Source: Candidatus Hermodarchaeota archaeon
GTDB taxonomy: Archaea > Asgardarchaeota > Hermodarchaeia > Hermodarchaeales > Hermodarchaeaceae
NCBI GenBank assembly: GCA_016839365.1
Contig: JAEOUH010000047.1
Coordinates: forward strand, 14,542 to 78,541
Direction of reading: 5' to 3'
Length of the DNA stretch: 64,000 nucleotides
The position numbers and the translations under genes are program-made. How positions within the stretch are numbered: position 1 is the stretch's first letter; each line of letters opens with the position of its first letter. Shown here one piece after another: positions 23,482-56,109 of this stretch. The notes under the pieces were generated by a model. It did not search any database. It was not told the origin of the DNA and was given only the letters and a program-made list of their open reading frames with translations.

Positions 23482-23593
23482 GCCGGGATAGCCAAGTGGT
23501 TACGGCGCGGGCCTTGAGAGATGCCATGAAGTGTCATCCAAGGTAGCCTGTGACCCTACGGTCGCAAGGGTTCGAATCCCTTTCCCGGCGCCA
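23482..23593 (+). tRNA. tRNA-Ser (anticodon TGA) with a 26-nt canonical intron (23519..23544); CCA encoded
   Basis: Hand-folded cloverleaf: acceptor GCCGGGA/TCCCGGC, discriminator G, long variable arm GACC-CTAC-GGTC, T-arm AAGGG-TTCGAAT-CCCTT. The intron forms a strict BHB: CTTG(AGA)GATG...CATC CAAG(GTA). Confidence 0.9.
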
Positions 23594-23704: not shown

Positions 23705-24127
23705 GTGGAATACGAATACTCCGACGAAATCACATCCGACCAGCTGTTCCACGCCTATGGAACGACCCTACCGGAGGTTTTCCGAAACGCAGGAAAAGCG
23801 TTGTTCGGTGTCATGTCTGATCTAGAGGAAGTCAAGCTCGAACACGAAATCGAAGTGAAAGCTGAAGGTATTGATGAGCAACACCTACTCTATGATTGGT
23901 TGTCAAACCTGTTACTAGAATTTGAAGTCGAAGGTGTGTTTTTCGCGGATTTCTCCATCAATTTAATCGAAGAAAGGCCAGGTGAAGGATTTCACTTAGT
24001 AAGTATAGCAAAAGGAAACAAGAAAATACCAGAACTTCGAACCCACGTTAAAGGGGTGACGTTACACCGTTTCTCCCTTGAAAGAATTAATAACGGATAC
24101 AGGGCTACCGTTGTAGTGGATGTTTAG
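23705..24127 (+). CDS. archease (RtcB activator)
   Basis: 140 aa, GTG start. SDQLFHAYGTTLPEVFRNAGKALFGVM N-terminal signature. Immediately upstream of rtcB. Confidence 0.85.
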   Translation: MEYEYSDEITSDQLFHAYGTTLPEVFRNAGKALFGVMSDLEEVKLEHEIEVKAEGIDEQHLLYDWLSNLLLEFEVEGVFFADFSINLIEERPGEGFHLVSIAKGNKKIPELRTHVKGVTLHRFSLERINNGYRATVVVDV

Positions 24128-24156: not shown

Positions 24157-25605
24157 ATGAAGGAAAAATTAAAGCAGCAAGACGAGTTTCGCTGGTGGCT
24201 TGACAAATCAGCGCGTCCTCGCATGAACGTCGGGGCAAAGATAATCGGTTCGAAAGAGATCATCAATACCTTAGAGGACGCAGCTGTTGAGCAACTAACC
24301 AACGTAGCAACGCTTCCTGGTCCAATTGAACCGGTTCTGGCCATGCCTGACGCTCATTGGGGATATGGGCTTCCGATGGGAGCCGTTGGCGCTTTTGATG
24401 CTGAAGAGGGGATTATTTCCGCAGGGTGTACAGGTTTTGATATCAACTGTGGCGTCCGCCTCATTCGCACTAATCTTAGTGTTGAAGATGTCCAACCCAA
24501 GTTACAACAGCTAGTTGAGGAGCTATTTAATCGAGTTCCTGCGGGAGTCGGTTCTCAAGGTAAAATTCGATTAAGTGATAGTCAGTTTAGTGATGTTATT
24601 CGGTGGGGAGCTAAGTGGGCGATTGATAATGATCGGGGGGTACCAGCGGATTTAGCCCATTGTGAGGAAGGAGGTTATATGGAGGGAGCCGCCATGCAGG
24701 CACCTCAAGTTAGTGAAAAGGCACGACGTCGCGGACGTCCACAACTTGGTACGCTTGGAGCAGGAAACCATTATCTAGAGGTTCAGAAGGTTGAGAAAAT
24801 TTTTGATGAACCTGTTGCCAAAGTCTTTGGTCTGGAGAAAGGGCAAATAGTGGTGATGCTTCACTGTGGATCCCGTGGATTTGGCCATCAGATTGCAACC
24901 GATTATTTAGAGAGTATGGCTGTAGCAGTTAAGAAATATAACATATGGCTTCCAGATCAACAACTCGTCTGTGCACCTGCAAACTCTCCTGAAGGGCAGG
25001 ACTATTATGCTGCGATGAAGGCAGCAGTGAATTTTGCCTTTTGTAACAGACAGGTTATGACCCATTGGATTCGACAAGGTTTTGAAGCGGTCTTTGGTCG
25101 AGATTGGGAATCGCTGGGGATGCACCTTGTTTATGACGTGACGCATAATATCTGCAAGTTCGAAACCCATGAGGTGAATGGATTGAAACGCGACATGTAT
25201 TTGCATCGGAAAGGTGCGACGCGCGCGTTCGGGCCAGGCAACCCCAAAATCCCTGAAGACTACCGATCAGTTGGTCAACCCGTCCTAATCGGTGGCTCAA
25301 TGGGAACCGCATCCTATGTTCTAGTTGGCACAGAACAGGCAATGAAAGAAACCTTTGGATCCACCTGTCATGGAGCAGGTCGAGCAATGTCTCGAAAAGC
25401 AGCGATTCGCAAGTATCATGGACGAGATATCAAAAACGCACTTGAAGCCAAAGGAAAAGTGGTTCGTTCCATGGGTACAAAGATACTAGCTGAAGAAGCG
25501 CCCAATGCCTACAAAGATGTCCATGTTGTTGTAGACTCAGTCCATGGCGCGGATATCTCACGCAAGGTCGCAAGTCAGATACCATTGGGTGTTGTGAAAG
25601 GCTAG
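24157..25605 (+). CDS. rtcB: RNA-splicing ligase RtcB
   Basis: 482 aa. HCGSRGFGHQ, GSMGTASY and CHGAGR motifs. No intein-sized insertion. Confidence 0.95.
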   Translation: MKEKLKQQDEFRWWLDKSARPRMNVGAKIIGSKEIINTLEDAAVEQLTNVATLPGPIEPVLAMPDAHWGYGLPMGAVGAFDAEEGIISAGCTGFDINCGVRLIRTNLSVEDVQPKLQQLVEELFNRVPAGVGSQGKIRLSDSQFSDVIRWGAKWAIDNDRGVPADLAHCEEGGYMEGAAMQAPQVSEKARRRGRPQLGTLGAGNHYLEVQKVEKIFDEPVAKVFGLEKGQIVVMLHCGSRGFGHQIATDYLESMAVAVKKYNIWLPDQQLVCAPANSPEGQDYYAAMKAAVNFAFCNRQVMTHWIRQGFEAVFGRDWESLGMHLVYDVTHNICKFETHEVNGLKRDMYLHRKGATRAFGPGNPKIPEDYRSVGQPVLIGGSMGTASYVLVGTEQAMKETFGSTCHGAGRAMSRKAAIRKYHGRDIKNALEAKGKVVRSMGTKILAEEAPNAYKDVHVVVDSVHGADISRKVASQIPLGVVKG

Positions 25606-39478: not shown

Positions 39479-39587
39479 TGGCGCCCGTTCCGGGATTCGA
39501 ACCCGAGTCCTAGGAGATCCGCAGACCCATGAATCATCATTGATCGTTGACAGTCCCAGATGATAGACCTGGCTACACTAAACGGGC
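39479..39587 (-). tRNA. tRNA-Asp (anticodon GTC) with a 31-nt intron at 37/38 (39517..39547); CCA encoded
   Basis: Acceptor GCCCGTT/AACGGGC, D-arm GTGTAGCCAGGTCTATCAT typical of archaeal Asp. The loop reads CTGTCA|intron|C. The length bookkeeping (78 + 31 = 109) closes. Confidence 0.85.
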
Positions 39588-39658
39588 GCGGTGTTGTGTG
39601 GATTATTTGGGGAAATTTAAAGGTTACTCTGGTCGGAGTGGCTGGTTTGGGTGAGGGT

Positions 39659-39791
39659 TGGTCCCGGCGCCCGGATTTGAACCAGGAACCATCTGGTGTC
39701 TGCGTTGGTTGACACCCAGTCATTGCCATGATGGCTCGGGGTGCGGTGTATACCTACAGCCAGACGCTCTACCAGGTTGAGCTACGCCGGG
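39659..39791 (-). tRNA. tRNA-Tyr (anticodon GTA) with a 56-nt intron at 37/38 (39698..39753); CCA encoded
   Basis: C1:G72 pair (CCCGGCG/CGCCGGG) characteristic of archaeal/eukaryal tRNA-Tyr, D-arm GCTC-AACCTGGTA-GAGC, anticodon stem TCTGG/CCAGA. 77 + 56 = 133. Confidence 0.85.
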
Positions 39792-39832
39792 ATTGCGAAA
39801 AATAGGTTCGCGTGAGTCGCTTATAAGAGTTT

Positions 39833-40324
39833 TCAAAGGGTTTTGGTGAAAAGTTGGGTGAGAGTAGTGATGATTTCGTTGGCAGCGTCTTGGACGGGTT
39901 TAGAGAGGGGTTGAGTGAATTCGTCGGTGAGGGGTTGGATGCCGAGGATGAGGATAGTGGTAGCGATGTTGTTTTCGAGGTATTCGAGAAAGAAGGTGAG
40001 GGGGAGTTGGTGGGAGGAGAAGGCGATACCACCAATAGAGTCTTTATCAATGAGTTTAATGGTGCCAGCTTCAGCTTGCATGAGGGCAGCATCGATGAGG
40101 AGGATGAGATGGGGGTGGGAGTCGATGATATGACTGAGGAAGTTTTCAGGAACCGTGCTGGCATTGATGAGTTCCACATGGGGTGGATTGCGACCTTGGA
40201 GCTGGTCAATGATGTAGGGACCGATGCCATCGTCAGCTTTGAGGTCGTTTCCGATGCCGAGGATGGCGATTTTAGGTGCGTTGGTGAAGGCTTCTGTAAG
40301 ACGGTGTTGCCAGGATATCATCAA
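39833..40324 (-). CDS. hydrogenase maturation endopeptidase family protein (HycI/HybD/FrhD-like)
   Basis: 163 aa. ILGIGNDLKADDGIG motif and a later SSHQLP motif. No hydrogenase structural gene is present in the window. Confidence 0.7.
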   Translation of the reverse strand: MMISWQHRLTEAFTNAPKIAILGIGNDLKADDGIGPYIIDQLQGRNPPHVELINASTVPENFLSHIIDSHPHLILLIDAALMQAEAGTIKLIDKDSIGGIAFSSHQLPLTFFLEYLENNIATTILILGIQPLTDEFTQPLSKPVQDAANEIITTLTQLFTKTL

Positions 40325-40390
40325 GTCAGGAAAACGGGAAGAATGTTATATAGCTTCGCCTCTTGTCGCTTCAAATAGTGGTGCATAGGC

Positions 40391-40981
40391 ATGGTAGAGG
40401 AAAACGAACAGCATTCTTCAGAAGAGGAGCGCCTTCCGCTTCCTGATGAGCCTATTCCAGCGAGATTAACTCGGGGAAAAGTAGTGGTTGAAGGTGAGTA
40501 TGCGTCTGTGCTCTATGAGGCGGGGTATTATGGTACGATCAAGGGTGAGCAGAAATTAGAACTTGAGCCCGAAGAAGCGCTCTTATTGGCTCGGCGACAG
40601 CGTATAGCGGTGAGTCTGCCACAAAAGGAGGTGCTGGAATTTTCTTCGCTGCTGATGCGCTTATCAGAGGGGCAGCCGGGACTTTGGACTCGTTTTCTTG
40701 TATACAGTGATCTTCGAAGCCGAGGGTATGTAGTGCGGACGGGGTATGGGAAAGGATTGTTGTTCCGCGTATATCCAAGAGGAGCTAAGATCAATGAGGC
40801 AACTGCTCAGTATTTTGTTTGCGCGATTTCCGAGGGCTCTCCCTTGAAGGTGGAAGAGCTGGATGCGTTTAGCAAACAGGCGAAACGTAACCGGAAGAAG
40901 TTGATGCTTGCTGTGTTAGACCGGCAGGGGGAGACGACGTACTACCTTGTGTCTCCTGCTGATATTGTTGCGGAAAAATAG
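40391..40981 (+). CDS. endA: tRNA-splicing endonuclease family protein (EndA homolog; catalytic His apparently absent)
   Basis: 196 aa. FLVYSDLRSRGYVVRTGYGKGLLFRVY ... QYFVCAIS ... RKKLMLAVLDRQGETTYY aligns by eye to the EndA catalytic domain. The position of the conserved HS(K/E)(Y/W) histidine reads TAQY. Confidence 0.7.
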   Translation: MVEENEQHSSEEERLPLPDEPIPARLTRGKVVVEGEYASVLYEAGYYGTIKGEQKLELEPEEALLLARRQRIAVSLPQKEVLEFSSLLMRLSEGQPGLWTRFLVYSDLRSRGYVVRTGYGKGLLFRVYPRGAKINEATAQYFVCAISEGSPLKVEELDAFSKQAKRNRKKLMLAVLDRQGETTYYLVSPADIVAEK

Positions 40982-40997
40982 AGTAACTGTAGAAGAA

Positions 40998-41120
40998 TGG
41001 CGGGCCCGCCGGGAATTTCGACGTCAACGTTATCGATCGTATTCGAACCCGGGGTTACCAACTTAGGAGGCTGGCGCCTTCTCCGGGGAAGAAGAGCCTA
41101 TCCGGCTTGGCCACGGGCCC
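40998..41120 (-). tRNA. tRNA-Arg (anticodon CCT) with two introns: 20 nt at the 25/26 junction (41076..41095) and 27 nt at 59/60 (41015..41041); CCA encoded
   Basis: Acceptor GGGCCCG/CGGGCCC, anticodon arm CCAGC-CTCCTAA-GTTGG, T-stem CCGGG/CCCGG. The T-loop intron is a strict BHB: TTCG(AAT)ACG...CGT CGAA(ATT). 76 + 47 = 123. Confidence 0.75.
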
Positions 41121-41168
41121 AGGGAATACTAGTGTGCAAGGAAGTTGATGCTTTATGCATGTTTCGTT

Positions 41169-41858
41169 TTATCTCGTGAGTAACTTCGCACCTTTATCTT
41201 GACCGACATAGACAATATCGGCTTGAGTGGGAAAAAGGCCGTTTTCGATAACTCCAGGAATGGCATTCAGTTGGGAATCTAGTTGTTTTGGATCAGTGAT
41301 TTGCGGAAATGAGACGTCGATAATGAAGTTGCCGTTATCTGTGATTACTGGTCCAGCCTTTCGTTGGGCTTGCCGGAGCATCGGCGAGCCACCAAGACGT
41401 TGAATGCGATCTATAGAGAGAGCCAAAGCAGCGGGAAGCACTTCAACTGGAATGGGGACCGTCGTTCCTAGGATATCCACGAGTTTTGAACTATCAACAA
41501 TGATGATTAGTTGTTGCGCGGCCTCAGCCAAGATTTTTTCGCGGAGAAGGGCGGCGCCACCACCTTTGATCAGTGCAAGATTTGGATCCACCTCATCCGC
41601 TCCATCCACAGCACAAGCTAAACTGGTGACAGCACCCAATGGGACTGTGGTAATTCCTACATCATGTAATCGTAACTCAGTTGCATAGGAACTTGGCACA
41701 GCAGTGATGGTAATGTTTTCAGAGGCAATTTTTTCCACTAATAGGTCAATGAATATCTCAACCGTTGACCCTGTACCCACCCCCAAGCACATCCCATCAG
41801 AAACATGTGTTACCGCCGCTTCAGCAGCAAATCGTTTTTCTTCATCAACCGTCAACAT
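41169..41858 (-). CDS. rpiA: ribose-5-phosphate isomerase A
   Basis: 229 aa. GVGTGST, DGADEVD and KGGGAALLREK motifs. Confidence 0.9.
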   Translation of the reverse strand: MLTVDEEKRFAAEAAVTHVSDGMCLGVGTGSTVEIFIDLLVEKIASENITITAVPSSYATELRLHDVGITTVPLGAVTSLACAVDGADEVDPNLALIKGGGAALLREKILAEAAQQLIIIVDSSKLVDILGTTVPIPVEVLPAALALSIDRIQRLGGSPMLRQAQRKAGPVITDNGNFIIDVSFPQITDPKQLDSQLNAIPGVIENGLFPTQADIVYVGQDKGAKLLTR

Positions 41859-41960
41859 CAGCCACCTGTACGCTCAACTGGCACATAGCACTTCAACCAT
41901 TTGACCCTTAAAAATTCATCATCTCCCAACGAAATCCAGTTCGCACACCCAGGAAAAGAG

Positions 41961-42037
41961 TGGAGCCTCGGGCGGGATTTGAACCCGCGACCCTCGCCTT
42001 ACCAAGGCGATGCGCTACCACGCTATGCCACCGAGGC
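41961..42037 (-). tRNA. tRNA-Thr (anticodon GGT), no intron; CCA encoded
   Basis: Acceptor GCCTCGG/CCGAGGC, anticodon arm TCGCC-TTGGTAA-GGCGA, T-arm GCGGG-TTCAAAT-CCCGC. One D-stem mismatch. Confidence 0.85.
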
Positions 42038-42050
42038 TCAACAGGCTAAA

Positions 42051-42233
42051 TGGTGCCGAGGGCGGGCGTTTCGTGAAGCCCTACAGGCTTCAGTTCGATC
42101 CCGCGACCTCCAGATTTCTCCGGTGCGCCAGCAATCATCATATTTTGACCCTGGGGCAAAGCCCTATGAGTATCGCCCTGACATTTCAAGAATGTTCCAA
42201 GTCTGGCGCTCAACCAGGCTAAGCTACCTCGGC
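42051..42233 (-). tRNA. tRNA with anticodon TGG (Pro by anticodon; identity uncertain) with an 80-nt intron at 37/38 (42116..42195) and a 26-nt intron at 59/60 (42068..42093); CCA encoded
   Basis: Acceptor GCCGAGG/CCTCGGC, discriminator A, D-arm GCTT-AGCCTGGTT-GAGC, anticodon arm CCAGA-CTTGGA|..|A-TCTGG, T-stem GCGGG/CCCGC. The T-loop intron has a 7-bp hairpin, TGAAGCC/GGCTTCA. 77 + 106 = 183. Confidence 0.7.
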
Positions 42234-42403
42234 AGCACTAACCCACCGACCGTACCTTTTAAGCATTATTCTCAGGGCTTCCCCGATTCACAATTTTTCA
42301 CACCTATTCACTAACACGAAGCAATTTTAAGCACCAAAACAACTTTGACACGCCACCAACTGTGCGGGGCGTGTCCAAGGGTCACCGCCACAAAGACTAA
42401 GCC

Positions 42404-42514
42404 GCGGGGGTATCTCCCCCGATAGAGACCCCACAGCCAAGCTTGGTCAAAGGCGCAGGACTTAAGATCCTGTCTCGTAGGAGTTCCCGGGTTCGAAGCC
42501 CGGCCCCCGCACCA
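42404..42514 (+). tRNA. tRNA-Leu (anticodon TAA) with a 23-nt intron at position 8/9 (42412..42434); CCA encoded
   Basis: Acceptor GCGGGGG/CCCCCGC, discriminator A, D-arm GCC-AAGCTTGGTCAAA-GGC, anticodon arm CAGGA-CTTAAGA-TCCTG, long variable arm. Strict BHB: GGGG(GTA)TCTC...GAGA CCCC(ACA). Confidence 0.85.
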
Positions 42515-42615
42515 ATTTTCAAAAGATTTTTGTGCAATCTTGGAAGGTAGCGATTCGGAAAGCCACAAGCATCTTCCGAATCATTAATCAACAGTACTTG
42601 CACTAAATCAAATGA

Positions 42616-42690
42616 GCCTCCGTAGCATAGTGGTGGTGCTTTGGCCTTGTAAGCCAATGGTCCCGGGTTCAAATCCCGGCGGAGGCTCCA
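42616..42690 (+). tRNA. tRNA-Thr (anticodon TGT), no intron; CCA encoded
   Basis: Acceptor GCCTCCG/CGGAGGC, anticodon arm TTGGC-CTTGTAA-GCCAA, T-arm CCGGG-TTCAAAT-CCCGG. Confidence 0.9.
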
Positions 42691-42944
42691 TTTCAAATAA
42701 TGAGTTTTTAGATAATTTTGTAAAAAGCACCTTTAGAATGAAGTGTATCGAAATACATGGAATTTCATAGGGTTTAGACCAATGCGGTTGTTTATCGAAT
42801 AGAGCCACAATGATTTACTCAGGTTGAAGATAATGAAACTGGGTTTTATTATCTGCAGAGCCCTTGGTATAATTAAAATTAGATTACAGCAAGAAGTTTC
42901 TAGATAAGATTTATCAAGAACCCGTCTTTTCCTATACGCGCATC

Positions 42945-43080
42945 GGGCCGGTAGTCTAGTTATCCGGTTACAACTTGTGCTGGACTAGAGCGGTATGATG
43001 CGAGAAGGAAAACGGGTTCTGTTTTTCTCGCAAAGTTTGGGACCTCGTGGTCCCGAGTTCAAATCTCGGCCGGCCCACCA
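42945..43080 (+). tRNA. tRNA-Pro (anticodon TGG) with two introns: 29 nt in the D-loop (42962..42990) and 30 nt at 30/31 (43005..43034); CCA encoded
   Basis: Acceptor GGGCCGG/CCGGCCC, discriminator A. After excision the anticodon arm is CGAGG-TTTGGGA-CCTCG, the classic Pro loop. Both introns draw as strict BHBs: CTAG(TTA)TCCGGT...GCTGGA CTAG(AGC), and TGCG(AGA)AGGAAAAC...GTTTTTCT CGCA(AAG). Confidence 0.8.
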
Positions 43081-43135: not shown

Positions 43136-43255
43136 GTGGCGCGGTCATAGAAGCTGGGTCACACCCGGTCTCGTCAGATCCCGGAAGTTAAGCCGGTTTC
43201 GTCGCCCTGAGTACTGATATCCGAGAGGTGTCGGGAAAAGTGTGAACTGCGCCAC
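43136..43255 (+). rRNA. rrf: 5S ribosomal RNA (unlinked to 16S/23S)
   Basis: Helix I GTGGCGC/GCGCCAC. Conserved CCCGGTCTC...CCCGGAAGTTAAGCC...GAGTACTG core. Followed by a T-rich tract. Ends are accurate to about 3 nt. Confidence 0.9.
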
Positions 43256-45415: not shown

Positions 45416-46279
45416 GTGAAGAAAATAACCTATCGTCACCGCACACCCTTCTATCACTTTCTCAAAACCCAGCTAGGAGACCAGATACCTCCTAGGCTCC
45501 TACCTCGACGGCTTCGAATACTTGGCCATGTAGCAATTTTGTGGCTAAACCCACAAATTGAGCAATACAAGGAGTTGATTGGGGAAACCACGCTGGGATA
45601 TAGTACCAAAATTCGATCCGTCTTACGGCGAACGGCTGCAATTACTGGTCCCTATCGGAAACCTGCCGTGGAATTGATTGCGGGTTCACCTGAAACTGAG
45701 ACCGTCTTTCGAGAAAACAAGGTGATTTTCCATTTGGATCCAGTGAAAGTCATGTTCTCCGTTGGAAATAAGGCAGAACGGCTGCGCATGAGCAAACTGG
45801 GAACTGATGAGTTTGTCGTTGACATGTTTGCTGGGATAGGGCATCTATCTCTTCCCATGGCTGTGCATGCAAAACCTAAAGTCATTCATGCGATTGAGTG
45901 GAATCCTGATGCCTTCCATTTTCTTCAACAGAACATCCAATCAAACAATGTCTCCCACTTGTTTCAACCACATTTTGGAGATACCCGTCAACTCGCCCCG
46001 AGAATAGGTAAAGGTCAAGGAGATCGCGTCATCATGGGTTTAATTCAAGGCACTGATCAGTATCTCGAACAAGGAATACAATGCCTTCGTCCCGGGGGTA
46101 TGATGCACATTCATGAAATCGGTCCTAAAGAAGATATGGCAACACAACTGCTTTCACAATTGCACAAGATTGCATTGACGATGAACCGACAAGCGGATCT
46201 TGTTAGCACACGGATGATAAAGACCTATAATCCTAGATACAACCACTTCGTTCTTGATATCCAACTAAACAGTAGGTAA
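45416..46279 (+). CDS. Met-10+ family tRNA methyltransferase (Trm5 / Taw2-like)
   Basis: 287 aa, GTG start. SAM motif VDMFAGIGHLSLP and IEWNPDA. The size is closer to Taw2 than to full-length aTrm5. Confidence 0.75.
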   Translation: MKKITYRHRTPFYHFLKTQLGDQIPPRLLPRRLRILGHVAILWLNPQIEQYKELIGETTLGYSTKIRSVLRRTAAITGPYRKPAVELIAGSPETETVFRENKVIFHLDPVKVMFSVGNKAERLRMSKLGTDEFVVDMFAGIGHLSLPMAVHAKPKVIHAIEWNPDAFHFLQQNIQSNNVSHLFQPHFGDTRQLAPRIGKGQGDRVIMGLIQGTDQYLEQGIQCLRPGGMMHIHEIGPKEDMATQLLSQLHKIALTMNRQADLVSTRMIKTYNPRYNHFVLDIQLNSR

Positions 46280-54484: not shown

Positions 54485-54593
54485 GGGCCGATAGTCTAGC
54501 TATCTGAGAGGAGGCTATTCTCTTGGACTAGAAGGCTATGATATCGCGTTTACACCGCGATGGTCGGGGGTTCGAGTCCCTCTCGGCCCACCA
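54485..54593 (+). tRNA. tRNA-Val (anticodon TAC) with a 32-nt D-loop intron (54502..54533); CCA encoded
   Basis: Acceptor GGGCCGA/TCGGCCC, discriminator A, anticodon arm TCGCG-TTTACAC-CGCGA, T-arm GGGGG-TTCGAGT-CCCTC. Strict BHB: CTAG(CTA)TCTGAGAGGA...TTCTCTTGGA CTAG(AAG). Confidence 0.85.
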
Positions 54594-55107: not shown

Positions 55108-55193
55108 GCCGAGGTATCCTAGCCTGGTAGGGAGCAGGCCTGCTAAGTCTGTGTCCATCGGACTCACGAGTTCAAATCTCGTCCTCGGCGCCA
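55108..55193 (+). tRNA. tRNA-Ser (anticodon GCT), no intron; CCA encoded
   Basis: Acceptor GCCGAGG/CCTCGGC, discriminator G, anticodon arm CAGGC-CTGCTAA-GTCTG, long variable arm GTCC-ATC-GGAC, T-arm ACGAG-TTCAAAT-CTCGT. Confidence 0.9.
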
Positions 55194-55762: not shown

Positions 55763-56109
55763 GGACGGTGAGCCTAGGCGGGGGGCTAGAAGCCCCGCAG
55801 CGCCGCTACGGGCTGGCTAAGGCTCCCCTGCACCGCAAACGCTCTATACGGCGGGCTGAATGCCGATGTTAGGCTTTCTGACCTGTTGTACGACTCACTG
55901 TTTAAGGCTGTGACGATCCGCCTCGGAGGATCGCTGGTGGCGGTAGGCTTTTCGTAGGAAGGGCTGAATCGTCTTTATCAGGTGAAACCAGCGAGGCCCG
56001 GGAGGGAGCAGCGTAAGCCTGTACTGTAGATGCTTCCGAGATCCGGGTCTGAGACCTGACTGTGAGTACGGCTTCAGGGAGGGTTGACGACCGTCGGGGT
56101 TCATCGTCC
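55763..56109 (+). ncRNA. signal recognition particle RNA (7S/SRP RNA)
   Basis: Helix-8-like AGGCCC-GGGA-GGGAGCAGCG. The 5' GGACGGTGAGCC pairs fully with the 3' GGTTCATCGTCC. TTATATAT lies about 25 nt upstream (55733..55740). Ends are approximate. Confidence 0.8.

Follow-up and report, generated by a model that had tools for sequence, protein, structure and literature searches.

Eight of the 11 tRNA genes in a 64,000-nucleotide stretch of a Candidatus Hermodarchaeota genome (GenBank assembly GCA_016839365.1, contig JAEOUH010000047.1, positions 14,542 to 78,541 of the forward strand; referred to as the window, whose own numbering is used for all coordinates below) are interrupted, and after correction of two gene models 12 introns were counted in them. 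These are very probably ordinary archaeal tRNA introns of the bulge-helix-bulge (BHB) type, spliced by proteins and present at high density in this Asgard genome. The anatomy of the genes, the conservation of their exons, covariation in the motif helices, alleles free of introns and the genes for the splicing enzymes were all read directly from the sequences. An initial annotation of the window had proposed 11 introns in eight of 11 tRNA genes. The eight genes stand, nine of the proposed introns were recovered at the position and length given, different exon structures were obtained for the tRNA-Met and tRNA-Arg genes only, and the total rose to 12 when the tRNA-Met gene was found to be split by three introns.

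Identification of tRNA genes and introns

tRNA genes were located with ARAGORN, with the Rfam tRNA model and by a splice-aware search that took a 7-bp acceptor stem and an encoded CCA as its anchors. Run without introns permitted, ARAGORN returned three genes; with canonical introns allowed it added tRNA-Ser(TGA), tRNA-Asp(GTC) and tRNA-Tyr(GTA) with introns of 26, 31 and 56 nt, respectively, which are exactly the 37/38 introns of these genes in the initial annotation. Six of the 11 genes scored above threshold with the Rfam model, tRNA-Leu and tRNA-Val gave only partial, sub-threshold matches, and the Arg, Met and Pro genes were invisible to it. No tRNA genes beyond the same 11 loci were found in the window by the CCA-anchored splice search or by a permissive Rfam scan. 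The 3' CCA is gene-encoded in all 11 genes, and the eight spliced products were all called by ARAGORN as full-length cloverleaf tRNAs of 77-88 nt, CCA included. For genes with several introns ARAGORN was too permissive (dozens of solutions per gene), and comparative evidence was used instead.

BHB geometry and chance expectation

The BHB register was calibrated on the textbook intron of tRNA-Ser(UGA) and applied to all BHB tables. Each of the two 4-nt strands of the central helix, H, one at the end of the 5' exon and one at the end of the intron, leads into a bulge of 3 nt, and cleavage falls between the second and third bases of each bulge. The outer helix, h, is on the side of the exons and the helix h' is within the intron; a motif was called strict when H was paired 4/4 and both h and h' had at least 2 bp. 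Strict motifs were obtained for 6 of the 12 introns, and the central helix was fully paired in 10; the two with H paired 3/4 were the 37/38 and 59/60 introns of tRNA-Met, the latter being 4/4 in relatives of this strain. For random pairs of boundaries in the window the probability of a complete H was 0.022 and that of a strict motif 0.0005, and the binomial tails, with four alternative registers allowed per intron, were approximately 1e-9 for the 10 complete helices and 5e-14 for the 6 strict motifs.

Intron-free alleles that match the predicted junctions were identified for both introns of tRNA-Pro and for the 30/31 intron of tRNA-Met; for the other nine introns none were found among the relatives. 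In the Val, Arg, Leu and Met genes the exons are conserved and the introns variable, and the motif helices are held by compensatory change.

Introns of tRNA-Pro, tRNA-Val and tRNA-Leu

tRNA-Pro(UGG) (42945-43080, plus strand) contains a 29-nt D-loop intron at 17/17a (42962-42990; H CTAG/CTAG, with one G.G mismatch in h) and a 30-nt intron at 30/31 (43005-43034; strict BHB). In three genomes of the same genus the gene has neither intron, and its sequence is letter for letter that of the window exons when joined, with zero slack in the intron boundaries. These intron-free genes score 61-64 bits as tRNAs and lie in synteny beside the same 5S rRNA gene; the two introns are thereby retained as they had been annotated. 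In a sister genus (loci L025-L029) tRNA-Pro(UGG) has only the D-loop intron, at the same site and with the same TGGACTAGA-type 3' end, and one orthologue, among loci L023 (genome G013, same genus), L025-L029 and L060, has a single different intron near 38/39. A tRNA-Pro(GGG) gene elsewhere in the genome (contig C12, 583-717) carries a D-loop intron at the site used in tRNA-Pro(UGG), with a CTAG helix, and a second intron; its intron sequences are unrelated to those of tRNA-Pro(UGG).

The 32-nt D-loop intron of tRNA-Val(UAC) (54485-54593, plus strand) is placed at 17/18 (54502-54533). Its motif is strict, with h of 5 bp, H CTAG/CTAG and h' of 8 bp, and the intron is found in every member of the family. 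Across 18 orthologues 93% of the cells in the BHB helices were paired, as against 31-52% with slid partners; double changes occurred at five pairs (27 compensatory cells), and none of 500 shuffles reached the observed score. This covariation upholds the D-loop intron in the form first proposed. One tRNA-Val orthologue, again among loci L023, L025-L029 and L060, has an extra intron adjoining the anticodon loop.

In tRNA-Leu(UAA) (42404-42514, plus strand) a 23-nt intron at 8/9 (42412-42434) was defined from its BHB and from orthologues. The motif is strict, the central helix being formed with G3-G6 of the acceptor stem, and compensatory changes in h' were seen among eight orthologues (for example TCTC/GAGA, TCAC/GTGA and TCTA/TAGA); the intron is accordingly unchanged from the initial model. 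The Rfam match to this gene covers only positions 9-63 (27.3 bits). A G+C-rich, hairpin-like stretch (GCGGGGCGTGTCC...GTCACCGCC) at 42364-42403 lies directly upstream, and ARAGORN at low threshold misreads this stretch together with the tRNA-Leu gene as 'tRNA-Ala'.

Revised D-loop intron of tRNA-Arg

tRNA-Arg(CCU) (40998-41120, minus strand) is interrupted by a 19-nt intron at 20a/21 (41081-41099) and by a 27-nt intron at 59/60 (41015-41041). The latter had been proposed with the same position and length; its motif is strict, with H TTCG/CGAA, the T-stem as h, and an h' that covaries among 17 orthologues. The former takes the place of a 20-nt intron at 25/26. It follows gene position 21 (Sprinzl 20a/21), and its H is formed by C16-G19 paired with CCGG of the intron; H is paired 4/4, with a 3-nt bulge on either side and an h' of 2 bp, and the outer helix is not adjacent but set off by a small internal loop, which makes this a relaxed motif of the HBh' type. 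Pairing of H is complete in 15 of the 17 orthologues, U16-A replaces C16-G in seven, and the mature D-arm, GCCAAGNCGGAT followed by AAGGCG, is constant. The D-loop of the mature tRNA-Arg(CCU) is predicted to read AGCCGGAUA. The intron-free tRNA-Arg(UCU) and tRNA-Arg(GCG) genes of the same genome have the same 9-nt D-loop, GGATAAGGC or GGATATGGC, and under the 19-nt model the mature tRNA-Arg(CCU) has the GGATAAGGC D-arm of tRNA-Arg(UCU).

The 20-nt intron at 25/26 gives a foldable tRNA in the window alone. Relatives have GGA, GGT or AGT in place of the GGC that it uses as D-stem, and no BHB for it was found in the four equivalent registers by hand inspection or among the BHB candidates; this model was rejected.

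Three introns in tRNA-Met

The minus-strand gene at 42051-42233 had been described as a TGG tRNA with an 80-nt intron at 37/38 and a 26-nt intron at 59/60. From an alignment of 11 orthologues, the BHB tables and the spliced cloverleaf it is assigned to tRNA-Met(CAU), with introns of 31 nt at 30/31 (42172-42202; strict, with H CGCC/GGCG, h of 4 and h' of 2), 49 nt at 37/38 (42116-42164) and 26 nt in the T-loop at 59/60 (42068-42093; strict in relatives), the last being the one already annotated. A 7-nt micro-exon, ACTCATA (42165-42171), separates the 31-nt and 49-nt introns. In five of the 11 orthologues precisely the 31-nt segment from between GCGCCAG and ACTCATA is missing, so that the anticodon arm reads CCAGA-CTCATA, and in the window and in the five other orthologues that carry the 31-nt piece it is bracketed by a strict BHB. 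CTCATA, and with it CAT, is invariant across the orthologues. In the 37/38 intron a conserved A35.G mismatch occupies H, and a 5-bp h is present after removal of the first intron.

A relaxed motif can also be drawn for a single 80-nt intron (H 3/4, h 5/5; determined by hand in the same geometry), and ARAGORN accepts this intron once the T-loop intron has been removed, but calls the anticodon 'tga'. In the same reading the 'anticodon' is not stable between orthologues, being TGG (or TGA) here and TGT, AGT or TGC elsewhere, whereas those without the 31-nt piece read CAT. The 7-mers ACTCATA and ACTTGGA both have the form ACTNNNA, which accounts for the misreading. Given this and the D-arm evidence for tRNA-Arg, we regard it as very unlikely that the initial exon structures of these two genes, a UGG tRNA with one 80-nt intron and a 20-nt intron at 25/26 in tRNA-Arg, are correct.

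Since the initiator tRNA-Met is encoded by a separate intron-free gene on another contig (C76; A1-U72 and a G-C-rich anticodon stem), the gene at 42051-42233 is classed, from its sequence, as the elongator type; a CAU tRNA of the Ile2 type is a less likely alternative.

The outer helix of the 30/31 BHB and the central helix of the 37/38 BHB both need C32-A35, the CUCA of the 7-nt exon. The two motifs are therefore mutually exclusive, which points to ordered removal, probably with the 30/31 intron leaving first. Ordered removal in multi-intron pre-tRNAs was reportedly described by Tocchini-Valentini and colleagues in 2009.

Introns at the canonical position

tRNA-Ser(UGA) (23482-23593, plus strand; Rfam 48.3 bits) has a 26-nt intron at 37/38 (23519-23544) with a strict hBHBh' motif (H 4/4, h 6, h' 4). 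tRNA-Asp(GUC) (39479-39587, minus strand; 40.7 bits) has a 31-nt intron at 37/38 (39517-39547), slightly relaxed, with H 4/4 including two G-U pairs, h 6/6 and h' formed only after one mismatch; the hairpin of this intron is maintained in relatives by compensatory changes. tRNA-Tyr(GUA) (39659-39791, minus strand; 53.4 bits) has a 56-nt intron at 37/38 (39698-39753) of the hBH type, with H 4/4, h 6/6 and no adjacent h'. ARAGORN and the BHB tables agree on all three, as does the initial annotation, which had fairly called the Asp and Tyr introns relaxed: the anticodon stem supplies a full h in both, but the inner helix is imperfect in the first and absent in the second.

Mean pairwise identity among relatives was 0.80 for the Tyr intron and 0.83 for the 37/38 intron of tRNA-Met, and 0.50-0.61 for the introns at non-canonical positions. 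A putative function beyond splicing is possible for these two canonical-position introns.

The Asp intron was also considered as a box C/D guide (ATGATGA, 12 nt, CGGA), and this was rejected, since relatives do not share the ATGATGA, which simply forms one arm of the hairpin. A similar box C/D-like pattern was also noted in the Met 37/38 intron, where CTGGCGC, complementary to exon positions 24-30, lies beside an ATGATGA motif. The Tyr intron contains a K-turn-like arrangement, GA...GCC-loop-GGC-AAU-GA.

Splicing enzymes and proposed pathway

Genes for archease (23705-24127, plus strand; Pfam PF01951, E 3.6e-32) and for the tRNA-splicing ligase RtcB (24157-25605, plus strand; PF01139, E 2.2e-170) come after tRNA-Ser(UGA) in the window. 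A protein of the EndA family with 196 aa is encoded at 40391-40981 (plus strand) and has both the N- and the C-terminal domain, with matches to Pfam PF01974 and PF02778. In an alignment to M. jannaschii EndA (1A79) its catalytic His is replaced by T138, and the Tyr and Lys are kept; it is presumed, from these residues, to be the non-catalytic beta subunit of an (alpha-beta)2 endonuclease. Two EndA paralogues are present in the genome (two PF01974 matches), the catalytic alpha subunit (186 aa) being encoded on contig C43. The alpha subunit aligns end to end with that of A. pernix (3P1Z_B, E 6e-46), has the catalytic Tyr, His and Lys, and is gap-free through the A. pernix specific loop (CSL/L1), in which its K41 aligns with K44. 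This loop lysine has been tied to broad EndA specificity (Kaneta et al. 2018, PMC5829648). The statement in the initial annotation that such introns require an endonuclease of relaxed specificity is thus matched by a catalytic alpha subunit with the loop lysine and a paralogue that lacks the His.

The combination of a catalytic alpha subunit bearing a loop lysine with a non-catalytic paralogue resembles the (alpha-beta)2 EndA of A. pernix (PDB 3P1Z, 3AJV) and that of Asgard archaea (PMC5829648). The second subunit differs, in that it is a full two-domain protein whose nearest match is the homotetrameric M. jannaschii enzyme (E 4.5e-21), and in that it matches the A. pernix beta subunit at only E 2e-6; of its catalytic residues the His alone is lost. 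Its gene sits amid its own presumed substrates: tRNA-Asp and tRNA-Tyr precede it in window order and tRNA-Arg comes after it, and in all 12 related loci it likewise lies between tRNA-Tyr and tRNA-Arg.

In the proposed pathway local folding of the pre-tRNA would bring a stretch of exon into pairing with the 3' portion of the intron, and the resulting 4-bp helix would be flanked by two 3-nt bulges. The (alpha-beta)2 EndA, assembled from the catalytic alpha subunit with its specific-loop lysine, encoded on the other contig, and the His-less subunit encoded in the cluster, would cut after the second nucleotide of each bulge, and RtcB with archease would join the exons; in tRNA-Met the 30/31 intron would be taken out first and the 37/38 intron after it. 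A complete cut-and-join pathway is encoded, and from the sequences we infer its action on these pre-tRNAs, with cleavage, ligation and the order of splicing.

Observations at odds with splicing

Several observations weigh against the interpretation as ordinary BHB introns. No textbook motif is formed by the Asp, Tyr, Met 37/38 and Arg D-loop introns, and minimum-free-energy folds of the pre-tRNAs recovered the central helix for only 5 of the 12 introns, a result that does not settle the matter. Position 54 of tRNA-Met (window 42099, minus strand) is A in this strain and in its nearest relative (L003) but T in the nine other orthologues; with A54, one pair is lost from H of the T-loop BHB, as is the usual tertiary pair 54-58. 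On the 37/38 cut of tRNA-Met the output of ARAGORN alone was ambiguous, calling Met(cat) in five test sequences and a class-I 'Ser(aga)' in nine, the window gene spliced of its other two introns among them. Lastly, with a genome that is 84% complete, intact copies may lie in the missing part. In favour of splicing, a rough census of the genome turned up no second copies of the anticodons of the interrupted genes, so that these genes should be the functional ones.

The class-I 'Ser(AGA)' was rejected: it is not a credible tRNA, and the invariant CTCATA and the BHB register favour the 37/38 cut of tRNA-Met. That some of the inserts, especially the relaxed ones or those in D-arms, are left unspliced, as retained expansions or in decaying pseudogenes, is improbable. 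The unusual A54 would suit such an explanation, as would the report that canonical motifs are missing from a minority of the D-arm insertions of Asgard archaea, which are perhaps not introns (Goswami et al. 2026, preprint, 10.64898/2026.10.13.758758). On the other hand, the exons are near-invariant beside variable inserts with compensatory changes that preserve the BHB, retention of the inserts would destroy the D-arm or the anticodon arm, and the rough census gave no intact second copies. Splicing as BHB introns is therefore retained as the interpretation.

Genome-wide census and intron turnover

By the same heuristics the census gave approximately 40 tRNA loci in the genome, of which 14 were free of introns, approximately 26 (approximately 65%) were interrupted and approximately 10 had at least two introns, so that the window is typical of its genome. 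Only 23 tRNA matches in the whole genome were above the Rfam threshold. When each of the 12 introns was compared with the whole genome by blastn, self-matches only were obtained and no second copies; this agrees with the failure of Goswami et al. (2026) to find a general copying route.

Within one genus both Pro introns are present (six genomes) or both absent (three genomes), and the 31-nt intron of tRNA-Met is present in 6 of 11 orthologues; intron content varies gene by gene between close relatives. A bolder proposal, which we hold to be possible but rather doubtful, combines intron-bearing and exactly intron-free alleles in one genus with a joint absence of the Pro introns that would reflect loss by recombination with the cDNA of a spliced tRNA, not two gains, and with an order of removal in tRNA-Met that would be obligatory. 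If it were true, the clade would provide a natural before-and-after series for the entry and exit of BHB introns. The clean presence and absence alleles are in any case useful for the study of intron turnover.

The window also shows how tRNA genes of Asgard archaea come to be missed by generic search programs. With the exons modelled correctly, essential decoders (those for elongator Met, Pro, Arg, Leu and Val) are recovered that would otherwise seem absent or be mis-assigned, and the misreading of tRNA-Met as a second 'Pro-like UGG' gene is a concrete case of a false anticodon arising from a gene with several introns.

Relation to known systems

All 12 related loci were from metagenome-assembled genomes (MAGs), 10 of them labelled Hermodarchaeota, Promethearchaeota, Odin- or Thorarchaeota and two 'uncultured archaeon'. 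Relatives of the EndA-like gene of the window were found, apart from 'uncultured archaeon', only in Asgard-labelled MAGs, with the same order of flanking tRNA genes. The closest relatives thus belong to Hermodarchaeota and Promethearchaeota, and the lineage of Thermoproteales-type Crenarchaeota implied by the initial annotation was abandoned. The genome studied here is itself a MAG, of 93 contigs and 84% completeness, and in such an assembly an interruption could be an artefact of assembly or binning; the same interrupted genes recur in the same order in more than 12 MAGs assembled independently in different studies, which makes this explanation extremely unlikely.

Multi-intron tRNA genes of Asgard archaea and their (alpha-beta)2 EndA with an L1 loop were reported in 2018 (PMC5829648), an extreme intron load was described in Atabeyarchaeia and Freyarchaeia in 2024 (PMC11291895), and missed D-arm introns, repeated gains and an enrichment at BHB sites were reported from 90 Asgard genomes by Goswami et al. 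(2026). The genes of the window share with those systems (PMC11291895; Goswami et al. 2026) the superphylum, several BHB introns per gene, many of them in the D- or T-arm and missed by standard tools, two EndA paralogues, and intron presence that varies among close relatives. They differ in intron load, approximately 1.1 per gene in the window versus 2.0-2.4 per gene in the focal Asgard families, and neither paper mentions Hermodarchaeota in its main text. Multi-intron tRNA genes have thus already been described in Asgard archaea, and Hermodarchaeota add one more Asgard family.

In Thermoproteales positions 20/21, 30/31 and 59/60 and three-intron genes have long been known (PMC4090602). The likeness extends to the limit of three introns per gene (e.g. 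Pyrobaculum islandicum tRNA-Pro(UGG); Sugahara 2007, 2008, reviewed in PMC4090602), to the 20/21, 30/31 and 59/60 positions, to the mixture of strict and relaxed (hBH, HBh') motifs and to an (alpha-beta)2 EndA with the specific loop. Thermoproteales are of another phylum, however, and their intron families have been attributed to transposition, whereas no second copies of the 12 introns were found in this genome.

Other features of the window

The three uninterrupted genes, all called by ARAGORN, are tRNA-Thr(GGU) (41961-42037, minus strand; Rfam 61.5 bits), tRNA-Thr(UGU) (42616-42690, plus strand; 70 bits) and tRNA-Ser(GCU) (55108-55193, plus strand; 54.3 bits). A 5S rRNA gene (43137-43255) lies 57 nt downstream of tRNA-Pro, a pairing that is also seen in relatives, and an archaeal signal recognition particle RNA (55766-56106) lies downstream of tRNA-Ser(GCU). 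Near the tRNA clusters are genes for a methyltransferase of the Trm5/TYW2 family (45416-46279), a putative RNA methyltransferase (PF02598; 25621-26508), the hydrogenase maturation protease HycI (39833-40324) and RpiA (41169-41858).

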